Shown one piece after another: positions 1,782-27,124 of a stretch of 64,000 nucleotides of DNA (position 1 is the stretch's first letter; each line of letters starts with the position of its first letter). Under the pieces are notes generated by a model. The model did no database searches, was not told the DNA's origin, and was given only the letters and a program-made list of their open reading frames with translations. Source of the stretch: an uncultured Nitrospiraceae bacterium (GTDB taxonomy: Bacteria > Nitrospirota > UBA9217). A program made the position numbers and the translations under genes. The stretch is taken from assembly GCA_964447405.1 (NCBI GenBank), contig CAYUSP010000001.1, forward strand, positions 495,909 to 559,908, given 5' to 3'.

Positions 1782-2426
1782 ATGAAAAAAATAATCATAT
1801 TCATCTTTATCGCAGTAGCAGGCTACTGGAGCTACAACAATTATCATTACGTTTTGACCAAAATCGGTCTCCGAAACAATATCACAAAAGGGCAGGTGGT
1901 CTTCTTTACCGCTTCTTCCTGTGGCACACCCTGCTCAGTAGTATCGGACGAACTAAAGAGACGCGGTATTGTTTTTGAGGAAGTCGACGTAATGACCGAA
2001 GAAGGTCGCGGCCGTTTCTACAAGTATAGTCAAGAGACAATCATACCTCTAACCGTAATCGGTGATGTTAAAGTTGTTGGAAGCGATTTACTGGCGCTCG
2101 GGTCTGCTATTACTGAGGCTGCGGGCATGGATTCGCTGACGTCTTCAGAGCAGCAGGCGATGATGAAGCATTTTGATGACAACGGTAATCCTCGGGTGGT
2201 GATGTATGGTACTGAACGGTGCCCGTATTGTAAGAAGTTGAGGGCATTCATGGAAAGGAGCAATACGCCTTATATTTTCGCTGATATAGAGGGAAGCAGC
2301 GAAGCAAAAGACGATTATGTTGCCCTTCGTGGCAGAGGATATCCGCTGACGTTCATTGGCTTCCGCCGCATCGATGGGTATGATGAGAATAAGGTGGGTC
2401 AGGCGGTGAGGGAATTGCTGCGATGA
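1782..2426 (+). CDS. Membrane-anchored tandem glutaredoxin/thioredoxin-fold protein
   Basis: An N-terminal TM helix is followed by two Grx-like domains with CGTPC and CPYC active-site motifs. Confidence 0.75.
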   Translation: MKKIIIFIFIAVAGYWSYNNYHYVLTKIGLRNNITKGQVVFFTASSCGTPCSVVSDELKRRGIVFEEVDVMTEEGRGRFYKYSQETIIPLTVIGDVKVVGSDLLALGSAITEAAGMDSLTSSEQQAMMKHFDDNGNPRVVMYGTERCPYCKKLRAFMERSNTPYIFADIEGSSEAKDDYVALRGRGYPLTFIGFRRIDGYDENKVGQAVRELLR

Positions 2427-2534
2427 GGCAGAACCTGCGTTATTAAGCCGCAATCGTAAATTGCTCATCATATTTTCGCGGCACCAACAATGCCTTGAAT
2501 CCCGCAATATTTTGTGCAATAATCCCATTCCGTC

Positions 2535-3686
2535 ATGACTAACCTCCGATCCTTACTAACGAACAATTTGTCCTTCCTCGTAATTCCGCTCTGGGCCGGG
2601 ATGCTTGCGTTTCCCTTCACCGGTTTAGGCAGTGCTGCTGGCATTGCGGCGGCAGCTGTTGCACTTATCGCCCTCTGGAAATTTACTAAACTTGATTCTG
2701 TTGTTATTGTCATCCGTACCGCGATCAGCAGAATAGCAGCTGCCGTTCGATCTGTTTCTATACCCCGCCTCACGCACAAACCCTTCCTGTACGTGGCAAG
2801 CGTAGCACTGTGCATCATTCTACCATTGTTCCTGAATGATTATTACCGGGATATCATGACACTTACAGGCATGTATATCGTCCTCGCCCTTGGTCTGAAC
2901 ATCGTGGTAGGGCAGGCCGGCCTCCTGAACCTGGGGTACGTGGCATTCTATGCCCTGGGTGCCTACACCTATGCGATACTGTCCACAACCATCGGATTAT
3001 CTTTCTGGCCGGGGCTTGTTGCAGGCGGTCTGGTTTCAGCGGCGTTCGCGGCACTCCTCGGGATGATGACTCTGAAACTGCGCGGGGACTATTTTGCCAT
3101 CGTAACCTTGGGGCTCGGCGAGATCACACGCATCATTGCGAATAATTGGGACAGCATGACCGGCGGACCGAACGGCATCTCAGGGATCGGAAGGCCGCGC
3201 ATTGCGGGCTATGAAATCCATACAACCATGGATTTTTATTATCTCATGCTTATCCTGGTCATCCTGACCGTGTTCTCCATGCAGCGGCTTATAGCGTCAC
3301 GCATCGGGAGGGCCTGGATCGCCATCCGGGAGGATGAGATCGCGGCAGAGGCAATGGGGATCAATACCTACAGGCTGAAATTGCAAGCGTTCGTAATCGG
3401 GTCTGCGTGGGCGGGTGTGGTCGGCGTATTTTTCGCGGCTAAGATGGCATTTGTGTCTCCGGAGAGCTTCACGTTCTTTGAATCGGTGATCATTCTCTGC
3501 ATGGTCGTTCTGGGAGGCATGGGCAGCATCGCGGGCATCATTCTCGGCGCCCTGCTCCTGATCACGCTCCCTGAGATTTTTCGCGAATTTCAGGATTACC
3601 GCATGCTGGCATTCGGCGTTGCCCTCGTTGTAATGATGGTCTTCCGGCCGCAGGGGCTATTGGGTGGAGTGAGAAAAGCGGTTTAA
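2535..3686 (+). CDS. livM: Branched-chain amino acid ABC transporter permease (LivM family)
   Basis: It is a polytopic membrane protein carrying the LivM signature NLGYVAFYALGAYTYA. Confidence 0.8.
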   Translation: MTNLRSLLTNNLSFLVIPLWAGMLAFPFTGLGSAAGIAAAAVALIALWKFTKLDSVVIVIRTAISRIAAAVRSVSIPRLTHKPFLYVASVALCIILPLFLNDYYRDIMTLTGMYIVLALGLNIVVGQAGLLNLGYVAFYALGAYTYAILSTTIGLSFWPGLVAGGLVSAAFAALLGMMTLKLRGDYFAIVTLGLGEITRIIANNWDSMTGGPNGISGIGRPRIAGYEIHTTMDFYYLMLILVILTVFSMQRLIASRIGRAWIAIREDEIAAEAMGINTYRLKLQAFVIGSAWAGVVGVFFAAKMAFVSPESFTFFESVIILCMVVLGGMGSIAGIILGALLLITLPEIFREFQDYRMLAFGVALVVMMVFRPQGLLGGVRKAV

Positions 3687-3738
3687 GCTGATTTTTGTAC
3701 TTTTATGCCATGTTCTTAATCAAAGCAGAACCATTTTT

Positions 3739-3814
3739 CACACGAAGTCACGAAGTCACGAAGAACGACAATCGCTGATTCATGGTTTTTTTCGTGGCTT
3801 TGCGGCTTCGTGTG
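3739..3814. repeat. Imperfect 24-nt inverted repeat (cacacgaagtcacgaagtcacgaa … ttcgtggctttgcggcttcgtgtg). It contains an 8-mer cacgaagt tandem triplet and lies in the livM-livG gap.
   Basis: My direct read gives 20 of 24 complementary positions. It shares the core gaagccgcaaagcc with the repeat at 5400-5510. Confidence 0.7.
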
Positions 3815-3873
3815 ATATCGCTTTGTATGCTGTTTTTGCTTCATCTGTCTGAGGCTTTACCTCGTTTACTATT

Positions 3874-4644
3874 ATGTTGCTACTGGAAACTAAAAATCTG
3901 GCAAAGAACTTCGGAGGTCTCAAGGCGCTCGACGGCATTGACATGCGCGTGGAGCGGGAGCGGATCGTCGGCATAATCGGTCCGAACGGCGCGGGCAAGA
4001 CGACCTTCTTCAACTGCGTCACCGGTATGTACCAGCCCACACGGGGTAGAGTGATCTTCCATGACCGGGATATCACCCGTATGCCGCCCCACGAGATAAC
4101 GTCCATGGGGATCGCGAGAACATTTCAGAACATACGGCTCTTTAACGGTATGACGGTCAAGGAAAATGTCATAGCCGCAGCGCACTGCCGGTCAAATGCA
4201 GGCGTGTGGGGCGCCATCATGAGGACCCGGCGCGTGCGGAAGGAAGAACGCGACCTTGCCTTCCGGGCAATGGACATTCTGAAGTTCGTGGGGATCGAGG
4301 ACCTGCATGACCATGTTGCCTCCAACCTGTCTTATGGCGAACAGCGCAGGCTGGAGATCGCGAGAGCGCTCGGGACCGAGCCGCACCTGCTGCTGCTCGA
4401 TGAGCCGGCCGCAGGTATGAATCCGCTGGAAACGCAGGACCTGATGGCGCTGATCAGGAAAATACGGGACAACGGGGTGGCAATCCTTCTGATCGAACAT
4501 GACATGAAAGTAGTTATGGGAATATCGGACCGGGTGATTGTGCTGGACCACGGCGTGAAAATAGCCGAGGGTCTGCCTAAGGACATCCAGTCTGATCCGG
4601 CCGTGATCGAGGCGTATCTCGGCAAGGAGAGCGTGCATGCTTGA
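3874..4644 (+). CDS. livG: Branched-chain amino acid ABC transporter ATP-binding protein (LivG family)
   Basis: Walker A GPNGAGKTT, the ABC signature LSYGEQRRLEIARAL and Walker B LLLLDEPAAG are all present. Confidence 0.85.
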   Translation: MLLLETKNLAKNFGGLKALDGIDMRVERERIVGIIGPNGAGKTTFFNCVTGMYQPTRGRVIFHDRDITRMPPHEITSMGIARTFQNIRLFNGMTVKENVIAAAHCRSNAGVWGAIMRTRRVRKEERDLAFRAMDILKFVGIEDLHDHVASNLSYGEQRRLEIARALGTEPHLLLLDEPAAGMNPLETQDLMALIRKIRDNGVAILLIEHDMKVVMGISDRVIVLDHGVKIAEGLPKDIQSDPAVIEAYLGKESVHA

Positions 4645-5338
4645 GCTCCGGGATGTGACCGTATCCTACGGCATGATCGAGGCGCTCAAGGGTATCAGCC
4701 TTGCAGTGAGGCAAGGTGAGATCGTTGCGCTGATCGGCGCTAATGGCGCCGGGAAGTCTACGGCGCTGATGACGATTTCCGGTATCGTTTCCCCGCGATC
4801 GGGCACTATCACATACCTTGGAAAAGAAGTAACCTCCTTTCCGTCGCATCAGATCGTGCACATGGGCATTTCGCAGGTGCCCGAAGGCAGGCGCATTTTT
4901 TCCTCGATGACAGTACGCGAGAATCTGGAGATGGGCGCCTTCACCCGGGAAACGCGGGAAATTGATGTCTCCCTCAGGCGAATATTTGAAGTGTTTCCCA
5001 CCCTGGAAGAGCGTCAGCAACAGCTGGGAGGCACACTCTCAGGCGGGGAACAGCAGATGCTTGCCATCGGTCGCGCACTTATGGCAAGACCTCAGCTCCT
5101 GCTTCTTGACGAACCATCGCTCGGACTTGCTCCGATCATGGTCAGCAGGATATTCAAGATCATCAAGGAGATCAACAGTCAGGGTACGACCATCCTTCTT
5201 GTCGAGCAAAATGCCAAAGCAGCTCTCAGGCTTGCGCAACGCGCCTATGTCATGGAAACAGGAATGATCGTGATGCAGGGTAAGTCCGCGGAATTGGAAA
5301 ACGACCCGGGTATCAAGAAGGCTTATCTGGGGGAATAA
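4637..5338 (+). CDS. livF: Branched-chain amino acid ABC transporter ATP-binding protein (LivF family)
   Basis: Walker A GANGAGKST and the signature LSGGEQQMLAIGRAL are present. It overlaps livG by 8 nt. Confidence 0.85.
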   Translation: MLELRDVTVSYGMIEALKGISLAVRQGEIVALIGANGAGKSTALMTISGIVSPRSGTITYLGKEVTSFPSHQIVHMGISQVPEGRRIFSSMTVRENLEMGAFTRETREIDVSLRRIFEVFPTLEERQQQLGGTLSGGEQQMLAIGRALMARPQLLLLDEPSLGLAPIMVSRIFKIIKEINSQGTTILLVEQNAKAALRLAQRAYVMETGMIVMQGKSAELENDPGIKKAYLGE

Positions 5339-5399
5339 TATGTATGAATGAGGAATTAATTTCCACGGAGTCAAACTCTGCGCAAAATAGCAGGAATAT

Positions 5400-5510
5400 T
5401 TTCGCGCAAAGCCGCAAAGGCGCCAAGAAAGTCCCAACAAGAGGCTCAGACTTCTGGTTTTAACCATAGGTTTAAGGGTTTATTTGCGCGCTTTGCGGCT
5501 TTGCGCGAAA
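5400..5510. repeat. Perfect 20-nt inverted repeat (tttcgcgcaaagccgcaaag / ctttgcggctttgcgcgaaa) separated by 71 nt, downstream of livF
   Basis: Exact reverse-complement arms lie at 5400-5419 and 5491-5510. The core motif aagccgcaaag is shared with the repeat at 3739-3814. Confidence 0.8.
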
Positions 5511-5550
5511 CGGCTTTTTGTTTCCGGCTTGTCCGGGTCAGGAATGCGAA

Positions 5551-6300
5551 ATGCTGCGCAACATTAAACTCGTTATCGAATACGACGGCACCAATTACCA
5601 TGGCTGGCAGTCCCAGATCGGAACAGGCAGGCCTACGATCCAGGATTCGATAGAGATGGCTATTGCCATGGTTGCCGCGGAAGACGTAACTACCTATTCG
5701 TCCGGACGGACGGATGCAGGCGTGCACGCATGGGGCCATGTGGCGAATTTCAGGACCTGCAGCACGATCCCTGCCGAGGCCTGGACCCCCGCATTAAACC
5801 ACGTGCTTCCTCCAGACATCCGGGTGGTCTCTTCGGTGGAGGTAAAAGACGATTTCCATGCCCGGTTCAGCGCGTTGAGGAAAACCTATGTGTACCGAAT
5901 TCTGAACCGGAAAGCACCGTCTGCAATTCATCGGCATTATTCCTGGCATGTGAACAGGCCGCTTGATCTTGAACGCATGCGACAGGAAGCCCTCCATCTT
6001 CAGGGAAAGCACGATTTCTCAGCCTTTCGAGGATCAGGTTGCGCTGCTAAAACGACGGTGAGGACGATGACGTCTGTGGCCATTCTGCACGAAGGCGATT
6101 TTGTTCTGGTCCGGATGGAAGCTGATGCTTTTCTGATGCATATGGCTCGGAATATCGTGGGAACTCTCGCGGAAATCGGGCTCGGCCGTTTTCAAGCTGA
6201 AGACGTTGCCATGATACTGGCTTCCCGTGACCGGACAAGGGCGGGCAGGACGGCCCCTCCCCAGGGTCTGTACCTGGAATCAGTGCGCTATACGGAATGA
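5551..6300 (+). CDS. truA: tRNA pseudouridine(38-40) synthase TruA
   Basis: Motifs LVIEYDGTNYHGWQ and RTDAGVHA (catalytic Asp) are present. I chose the MLRNIKL start. Confidence 0.85.
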   Translation: MLRNIKLVIEYDGTNYHGWQSQIGTGRPTIQDSIEMAIAMVAAEDVTTYSSGRTDAGVHAWGHVANFRTCSTIPAEAWTPALNHVLPPDIRVVSSVEVKDDFHARFSALRKTYVYRILNRKAPSAIHRHYSWHVNRPLDLERMRQEALHLQGKHDFSAFRGSGCAAKTTVRTMTSVAILHEGDFVLVRMEADAFLMHMARNIVGTLAEIGLGRFQAEDVAMILASRDRTRAGRTAPPQGLYLESVRYTE

Positions 6301-26533: not shown

Positions 26534-27124
26534 ATGCACGATAAACATGATCTTATCCCGCCTCACGGCGGATATCGCAAACTGCGTAGTTTTCAATCTG
26601 CTCAGATAGTATATGACGCTACTGTCGTTTTTTGCGAACGCTTTGTGGAAAAACGATCGCGCACTCATGATCAAATGGTGCAGGCAGCAAGGAGCGGCGT
26701 GCAGAATATCGCCGAGGGGAGCATGGCCTCTGCTACCTCTAAAAAGACAGAACTGAAATTAACCAATGTCGCCAGAGCAAGCCTGGAAGAGTTGCTGTTG
26801 GACTATGAGGACTTTCTTCGTCAGCGCGGTCTGCGTATTTGGGACAAGAATTCAACTGACGCGCTCGCTATCCGAAATCGTTATAAGTCGGATGAGTCGG
26901 ACAAGTCTGACAGGTCGGACGGGTCTGACATTTACGGCTTTAAAACAGCATCTGCGGAAATAGCTGCAAACACTCTCATTTGTCTCATCAATCAGGCCAG
27001 CTACCTACTCGCAAGGCAAATTCAAGAGTTAGAAAAATCATTCCTATCGGAAGGTGGATTCACCGAGAGACTTTACCGTCAGAGAATGGCAGCGCGAAAT
27101 CCACGCAACCGGAACAATAAATAA
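26534..27124 (+). CDS. Four-helix-bundle protein (23S rRNA intervening-sequence protein / DGR Avd family, PF05635-like) with an inserted (SDx)n repeat and a basic C-terminal tail
   Basis: Family motifs present: YRKLRSFQSAQIVYDATVVFCERF, RTHDQMVQAARSGVQNIAEG, SKKTELKLTNVARASLEEL. The SDESDKSDRSDGSD insertion is encoded by 9-nt tandem units. Confidence 0.6.
   Translation: MHDKHDLIPPHGGYRKLRSFQSAQIVYDATVVFCERFVEKRSRTHDQMVQAARSGVQNIAEGSMASATSKKTELKLTNVARASLEELLLDYEDFLRQRGLRIWDKNSTDALAIRNRYKSDESDKSDRSDGSDIYGFKTASAEIAANTLICLINQASYLLARQIQELEKSFLSEGGFTERLYRQRMAARNPRNRNNK
26888..26929 (+). repeat. Imperfect 9-nt tandem repeat (tcggatgag|tcggacaag|tctgacagg|tcggacggg|tctgac) encoding (S-D-x)4.5
   Basis: My direct read of the sequence inside the four-helix-bundle gene. 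Confidence 0.75.

Follow-up and report, generated by a model that had tools for sequence, protein, structure and literature searches.

Two hairpins around livG and livF in an uncultured Nitrospiraceae bacterium belong to a cross-phylum family of octamer-arm palindromes linked to GxxExxY nuclease genes

A liv-like transporter operon of an uncultured Nitrospiraceae bacterium (Nitrospirota; UBA9217) carries one strong inverted repeat between livM and livG and is followed by another after livF, which raises the question of whether the two are regulatory structures of the operon or copies of a repeat that has settled there. They are referred to below as E1 (livM-livG spacer) and E2 (livF-truA spacer). 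The window analyzed was the whole stretch of 64,000 nucleotides (nt) at positions 495,909 to 559,908 of the forward strand of contig CAYUSP010000001.1 (assembly GCA_964447405.1), and all coordinates are those of the window unless a contig is named. We consider it probable, at roughly 0.7, that a palindromic element without a name, which occurs across phyla, is represented by E1 and E2 as solo copies that lack its gene. Such an element would resemble either the doublets of repetitive extragenic palindromic sequences (REPs) known as REPINs, with their REP-associated tyrosine transposases (RAYTs), or the intervening sequences (IVSs) of 23S rRNA.

E1 is formed by two 28-nt arms that are 82% complementary and 22 nt apart (Table 1). 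Its left arm holds 2.9 tandem copies of CACGAAGT (3741-3763). An initial annotation of the window had described E1 as an imperfect 24-nt inverted repeat with this tandem inside, and the description was correct, with 20 of the 24 core positions matching. E1 had also been said to fill an unusually long livM-livG gap; the hairpin does lie there, but it takes up 78 of the 187 nt. The perfect repeat reported after livF was recovered as E2, with 20-nt arms at 5400-5419 and 5491-5510 that are 100% complementary and 71 nt apart. E2 begins 62 nt past the livF stop codon. The two elements do share a core, as had been proposed: AAGCCGCAAAG occurs three times in the window compared with 0.08 expected, and none of 100 shuffled sequences reached three copies.

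E1 and E2 are the top two by length among the short-range inverted repeats of the 64 kb. Both lie between open reading frames (ORFs). As RNA they fold far more stably than shuffled controls (E1, z = -7.8; E2, z = -6.2). A three-unit pattern, (TTYGYGNC) x3 followed by YGA in the orientation of the 3' arm, matched three arms compared with 0.02 expected. Strict octamer units numbered 3 + 2 in E1 and 3 + 2 in E2, so that each arm holds at least two tandem units of the form CRCNRAGN. The closing motifs are TCA...TGA in E1 and TCG...CGA in E2, and the loop of E2 measures about 54-71 nt, depending on where the arms are taken to end. When the window was searched by nhmmer with an arm profile from other genomes, just the four arms of E1 and E2 were detected (E = 1e-8 to 1e-3). 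Two Logan contigs that carry the same liv genes (L001 and L002) stop at window position ~5426, within the E2 left arm, which is how assemblers behave at repeats. The likeness of the two elements (72% over 46 nt, 3779-3824 versus 5472-5517) is not limited to the arms but includes the loop's 3' part and the flank on the right (..GCTTTG..). At 10-20 nt beyond both elements, outer units in degenerate form were seen. E1 and E2 may be longer than their core stems.

Arms of this kind are not confined to the window. We define the family here as octamer-arm palindromic elements linked to GxxExxY genes. An arm consists of 2-4 octamers in tandem, which read CRCNRAGN in the 5' arm and as its complement in the 3' arm; the closing motifs are (C)TCA...TGA(G) or TCG...CGA. 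A typical element reads ctCA-CGCAAAGN-CGCAAAGN-CGCAAAGa, loop, tCTTTGCG-NCTTTGCG-NCTTTGCG-TGag. A scan of one genome per species (596 Gb) with the 19-nt pattern GCTTTGCGGCTTYGYGYGA gave at least 120 matching genome loci, compared with ~35 chance matches estimated on the assumption of uniform base composition. The loci listed came from Verrucomicrobiota, Planctomycetota, Acidobacteriota, Chloroflexota, Nitrospirota, Desulfobacterota, Myxococcota and Bacteroidota. Cyanobacteria, Elusimicrobia, Spirochaetota, Gemmatimonadota, Alpha- and Gammaproteobacteria and other groups were also represented, about twenty phyla in all.

Several features that the search pattern did not demand were found at these loci. 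A third unit lay directly upstream in 68 of 126 matches, and in 56 of 126 a left arm that is complementary and has two or more units was present within 220 nt. The bases just outside the octamers, unconstrained by the search, were C (0.72), T (0.94), C (0.97) and A or G (0.82) in 244 distinct arms, and both E1 (TCA) and E2 (TCG) fit them. E1 and E2 are thus members of the octamer-arm family. Among the matches listed, several metagenome-assembled genomes had more than one, and many matches lay at contig ends. Loops vary in length and sequence across the family. Loop lengths of 158 hairpins were bimodal, with solo hairpins at 3-160 nt and a main cluster at ~380-590 nt, which matches the size of the GxxExxY gene that lies inside. 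Viral contigs yielded just 3 pattern matches, and the element is therefore not chiefly phage-borne. On two viral contigs, L124 (3675-12375) and L125 (3559-7817), several octamer runs stand between consecutive phage genes, as if separating single genes. A BLAST search of plasmids with the consensus hairpin gave no match, possibly owing to the low-complexity filter.

The genes beside the hairpins were surveyed by Pfam. No recurrent transposase was found in the 25 commonest of the 115 Pfam families of 93 adjoining ORFs, which were housekeeping genes, and the sole recurrent hint was PF13366 (PDDEXK_3) with 2 matches. Three loci selected for their hairpins (L110, L112 and L037) carry a gene of 124-127 amino acids (aa) of the PF13366/TIGR04256 family, the 'GxxExxY protein', with flanking hairpins. 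The test was then reversed with 80 metagenome loci selected solely for GxxExxY protein similarity. Of 72 loci evaluable on the upstream side, 54 had a strict octamer run no more than 250 nt from the gene, and so had 63 of 77 on the downstream side, compared with a background elsewhere in the 80 loci of 0.055 runs per 250 nt. Where each side of the gene had at least 150 nt of sequence (69 loci), 60 loci showed at least one run. The commonest layout in these 69 was left arm, gene, right arm (26 loci), and in 10 the gene stood between two complete hairpins. In compact cases 0-3 nt separate the arms from the start (ATG) and stop codons, as in ctcgCGCAAAGGCGCAAAGACGCCAAGTa-ATG...TGA-gcCCTTTGCGTCTTGGCGACTTGGCGggag. 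Nothing recurrent besides GxxExxY was found as cargo between arms. Many contigs with GxxExxY genes are 500-1000 bp long and reach barely beyond gene and arms, which suggests that the repeats routinely break short-read assemblies.

Homologues distant from these have terminal repeats of their own. A GxxExxY homologue on a viral contig (L215, 39% identity) lies within an inverted repeat of 56 nt that is 98% complementary and consists of ~12-nt units (TTTTACTTAAAA), and another (L214, 46% identity) has flanking hairpins of ATCAGCG / CGCAGAT units. In a Prevotella-type subfamily, terminal repeats of 16-51 nt (35-51 nt in all cases save one) were present in every context examined; they consist of 12-nt units that differ by sub-group. 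The unit sequence is specific to the subfamily of the protein. An identical 140-aa protein of the Prevotella-type subfamily (P0442, in L224, L225, L226, L227 and L228) with tandem-repeat ends of ~45 nt occurs in at least two different flanking contexts. That distant subfamilies possess their own tandem-repeat ends, and that P0442 appears in differing flanks, indicates that gene and ends travel and diverge together. One set of P0442 flanks resembles another Bacteroidales palindromic repeat (ggtgtcggattacaaatccgacacaac). Arms of the octamer family thus serve as the terminal repeats of GxxExxY mini-elements.

The GxxExxY protein (Pfam PF13366, NCBIfam TIGR04256) is about 125 aa long and belongs to the PD-(D/E)XK nuclease family. 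It is numerous, with 29,696 cluster representatives at 50% identity (E <= 1e-3), of which 12,545 were found at E <= 1e-10. Residues E27 and Y30 of the motif and the catalytic D67, E77 and K79 were invariant in 40 sequences. An AlphaFold model (predicted local distance difference test score 93.6) has the PD-(D/E)XK fold. Its best structural match was Cas4 SSO0001 (Foldseek E = 5e-4, template modelling (TM) score 0.53), and other near solved folds were lambda-exonuclease-like enzymes and a splicing endonuclease (TM about 0.5). The Protein Data Bank gave no match by sequence and generic PD-(D/E)XK matches alone by fold; PADLOC and PHROGs gave nothing beyond weak similarity to the Cas4 active site. 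Judged by its residues and the predicted model, the protein looks like a functional, minimal PD-(D/E)XK nuclease. Some representatives of 275-295 aa (P0241-P0244 and others) contain two GxxExxY stretches; gene calling may have fused tandem copies in them, or the duplications may be true ones. The function of the family has been listed as 'Unknown', with 'multiple transfers' (PMC3424549). Full-text searches with the arm sequences returned chance matches alone. Searches on octanucleotide repeats, on REPs of Planctomycetes and Verrucomicrobia and on PDDEXK proteins with inverted repeats found no description of the family; it and its link to GxxExxY thus appear undescribed in the searchable literature, which leaves out most subscription journals.

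How the two copies came to lie in the liv operon was addressed by comparison with relatives. Close LivG homologues, some source-named Nitrospirota, are 82-84% identical, and the order livM-livG-livF-truA-cytochrome genes is kept. In two relatives with LivG 82-83% identical the livM-livG spacer is only 33 nt (L206) and 31 nt (L208) and has no hairpin. In a third (L212) the spacer measures 107 nt and shows no clear arm. E2 is not present in the livF-truA spacers of any of four relatives. Presence of the hairpins thus differs between relatives, and no orthologous liv locus was found among the hairpin-selected loci. The short, hairpin-free spacers indicate that both copies were gained in this lineage and are not conserved regulators of liv, and that a liv operon works without them. 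In L210 (3270-3500) a 231-nt livM-livG spacer holds a different member of the family (CGCTGAGACGCCGAGGCGCAGAGA..., CGCNGAGN type), which represents either a junction that took insertions more than once or an old, diverged element. The livF-truA spacer of L206 (4966-5080) contains another G/C-rich palindrome, ccctcacccc...ggaggagggag...cctcctctccccgtgggggagggg, possibly of another repeat family.

Genes were identified by Pfam on the same proteins (BPD_transp_2 for LivM; ABC_tran and BCA_ABC_TP_C for LivG; ABC_tran for LivF) and by the source names of close homologues. The liv-like cluster at 1782-3686 has one permease gene (BPD_transp_2, 383 aa), preceded by an ORF with a glutaredoxin domain. 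No livH or binding-protein gene adjoins the cluster, and relatives are arranged alike. Elsewhere in the window, at 26885-26930, the 9-nt unit AAGTCGGAC is repeated four times in tandem (alternatively an 18-nt unit 1.9 times); this repeat is not related to the octamer family.

Table 1. Parts of E1 and E2 and the genes around them in the 64,000-nt window.
Feature	Position	Strand	Description
E1 left arm	3738..3765	+	TCA, then CACGAAGT, CACGAAGT, CACGAAGA; arm profile E = 9.5e-4
E1 loop	3766..3787	+	no likeness to other family members
E1 right arm	3788..3815	+	TTCGTGGC, TTTGCGGC, TTCGTG, then TGA; arm profile E = 4e-4
E2 left arm	5400..5428	+	TTTCG, then CGCAAAGC, CGCAAAGG, CGCCAAGA; first 20 nt pair perfectly with 5491-5510; arm profile E = 1.2e-8
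E2 loop	5429..5482	+	GxxExxY gene remnant not detected
E2 right arm	5483..5510	+	TTTGCGCGC, TTTGCGGC, TTTGCG, then CGAAA; arm profile E = 1.5e-4
livM-like permease gene, upstream of E1	2535..3686	+	ORF; Pfam BPD_transp_2 on the identical gene in L001
livG (3874-4644) and livF (4637-5338), between E1 and E2	3874..5338	+	ORFs; Pfam
truA-like gene, 41 nt past E2	5552..6300	+	ORF; syntenic gene of relatives has PseudoU_synth_1

The following picture would account for these results. The full-length form of the element would have the arms as terminal inverted repeats directly around a GxxExxY gene of ~125 codons. Solo hairpins would stand to such genes as REPINs stand to a RAYT, or as ORF-less IVSs of 23S rRNA stand to ORF-bearing ones. 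In this lineage, copies would have inserted between livM and livG and between livF and truA and been kept as neutral or near-neutral insertions. The nuclease may bind the tandem units, as transposases do at multiple end sites, and mobilize or maintain the arms, with the solo hairpins as its non-autonomous partners. Once transcribed, stems of 20-28 bp might be cut by RNase III or block exonucleases and so uncouple expression of livM from that of livG-livF. An incidental effect of this sort on liv mRNA is possible, as the stems would suit RNase III. A broader proposal, which we put forward tentatively and would rate below even odds, is that GxxExxY genes with tandem-repeat ends constitute an unrecognized class of bacterial mini mobile elements, in which a minimal PD-(D/E)XK nuclease is the sole protein and recognizes the units, in which gene-less hairpins are left behind in genomes of many phyla, and which is perhaps a sister of the IVSs. 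If true, this would give the large PF13366/TIGR04256 family its first concrete role, acting on tandem-repeat hairpins around its own gene. It would also explain strong intergenic hairpins of some twenty phyla that break assemblies and can be mistaken for regulatory RNAs or terminators.

Several points weigh against the view of E1 and E2 as solo copies of a GxxExxY-linked element. The arm profile found these two copies alone in the 64 kb, and a tblastn search of the same 64 kb with a GxxExxY protein found no such gene. The association of arms with GxxExxY is positional and statistical. To our knowledge, there is no established precedent for a stand-alone PD-(D/E)XK protein acting as a transposase. 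No target-site duplication was detected in 158 hairpins, since direct repeats at the paired ends were no commoner than with shuffled partners, and the loops held no gene remnant; the solo hairpins are therefore not plain internal-deletion derivatives. The livM-livG alignment showed spacers too diverged from those of relatives to fix insertion boundaries.

The strongest competing explanation is that the hairpins are structures of the host, such as RNase III sites, mRNA stabilizers, insulators or terminators, which spread or arise in another way, and that the GxxExxY gene homes into them or finds shelter there as a guest and is not their mobilizer. Many solo hairpins do lie 10-100 nt past a stop codon, the gene is found inside loops as well as between complete hairpins, and the loops are free of gene remnants. 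The stems of 23S rRNA IVSs are cut by RNase III (PMC4990558). The pattern of pairing, however, points the other way. Covariation between arms was seen at unit positions 2 and 5 (about 90% Watson-Crick, G-C or A-T). Pairing occurs in only 51-63% of hairpins at position 4 and in only 34-42% at position 8, and positions 1, 3, 6 and 7 are fixed, although the search pattern demanded them. Across the family G-U mismatches are not in excess over A-C on the transcribed strand (25 G-U versus 38 A-C). This pattern fits a repeated unit that is read by a protein better than selection for a perfect RNA stem. Solo hairpins also occur between divergent genes, in 10 of 71 gene pairs (48 co-directional, 13 convergent), and distant GxxExxY subfamilies have tandem-repeat ends of their own. 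We therefore regard a purely host origin as unlikely.

A more local alternative is that E1 and E2 are a conserved cis-regulatory RNA of the liv operon (attenuator, processing site or terminator) under selection for this transporter; the initial annotation had also suggested sites of mRNA processing or attenuation. The elements lie within and right after the operon. The sense RNA of E1 folds at -41.2 kcal/mol compared with -29.8 kcal/mol for the antisense, because 3 of its 4 mismatches are G-U pairs on the sense strand; this bias does not hold across the family. No canonical terminator (a stem followed by a U-tract) and no promoter was found at E1 or E2. For E1 the terminator scan returned nothing, and at 5492-5509 only a weak sub-hairpin, with 4 sites in the region compared with 2.3 expected. 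Rfam at the gathering threshold gave 0 matches both for the window and for 18 family loci; over 3600-5700, with the limit at E <= 10, E1 and E2 matched generic miRNA-precursor models alone, far under threshold. The hairpins are not at orthologous syntenic loci, and the element stands beside unrelated genes in about twenty phyla. As a reason for the elements, regulation of liv is thus unsupported and very improbable. If our reading of the family is right, annotators who meet such a hairpin within an operon, like the one that separates livM from livG, should take it for an insertion rather than a conserved attenuator.

The elements had further been likened to a REP or a miniature transposable element with inverted repeats (MITE). 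An intergenic repeat family was indeed found, with octamer arms and a link to GxxExxY, but it is neither a classical REP nor a classical MITE. Under the explanation in question E1 and E2 would be REPs or REPINs served by a RAYT (HUH Y1), or MITEs derived from an insertion sequence (IS) with a DDE transposase. They are palindromic, intergenic and repeated, and E2, at ~110 nt, is of REPIN-like size. A REP is defined as a stem-loop with a stem of 5-13 bp and an unpaired GTAG or CGTC tag (PMC3733652). E1 and E2 have stems of 20-28 bp and no such tag, and family stems are 24-28 bp of octamers. It is PF13366 that lies between the arms, and no transposase recurs beside the hairpins, the window itself not having been scanned for RAYT. 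Terminal inverted repeats, as expected of a MITE, are present in E1 and E2, but the target-site duplication is not. Both versions are accordingly very unlikely. That E1 and E2 resemble each other by chance, as the presence of just two copies in 64 kb might allow, is practically untenable given the counts of the shared core and the three-unit pattern and the response of all four arms to a profile from other genomes alone.

Comparison with known systems places the family among several others. The GxxExxY protein shares its fold and the catalytic D...E-x-K motif with free-standing PD-(D/E)XK homing endonucleases (I-Ssp6803I) and with Cas4/RecB nucleases. It differs in being half the size of Cas4, in having no Fe-S cluster domain and in not being linked to introns or CRISPR loci. 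Bacterial MITEs (Correia/NEMIS, Nezha, Chunjie) are similarly non-autonomous, have terminal inverted repeats, measure tens to hundreds of nt and are tolerated inside operons. The octamer-arm elements differ from them in having no target-site duplication and no parent IS with a DDE transposase, and their ends are arrays of one short unit. Such tandem-unit ends are more like the multiple transposase-binding sites at the ends of Mu, Tn7 and CACTA elements than like a typical MITE repeat.

The closest parallels are REPINs and IVSs. The REPIN/RAYT system (REPtron) of Proteobacteria (Bertels & Rainey 2011, PMC3116915; Di Nocera et al. 2013, PMC3733652) also consists of short, scattered intergenic palindromes, in which inverted repeats flank one small nuclease-type gene and most copies are gene-less. 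The enzyme there is an HUH Y1 transposase, whereas here it is a PD-(D/E)XK nuclease. The octamer family further differs in its arms of 24-28 nt made of tandem octamers, in the frequent position of the gene in the loop with arms touching the start and stop codons, and in the occurrence of one arm sequence across about twenty phyla with a protein family of 29,696 clusters. The 23S rRNA IVS of Coxiella burnetii is a selfish element of ~430 nt with a terminal stem of ~28 bp and a small ORF (Warrier et al. 2016, PMC4990558). It has GACAGAT x3 right before the ATG, and its stem is a proven RNase III substrate (PMC4990558). Both systems thus have terminal inverted repeats that form a stem around a small ORF, together with short tandem repeats. 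IVSs lie in helix 25 or 45 of 23S rRNA and encode the four-helix-bundle S23p protein, whereas members of the octamer family lie between protein-coding genes, as E1 and E2 do in a window with no rRNA, have GxxExxY in the full form and are built from octamers of other sequence. If our reading is correct, intergenic hairpins such as E1 and E2 would be tied by their architecture to the intervening sequences of 23S rRNA.

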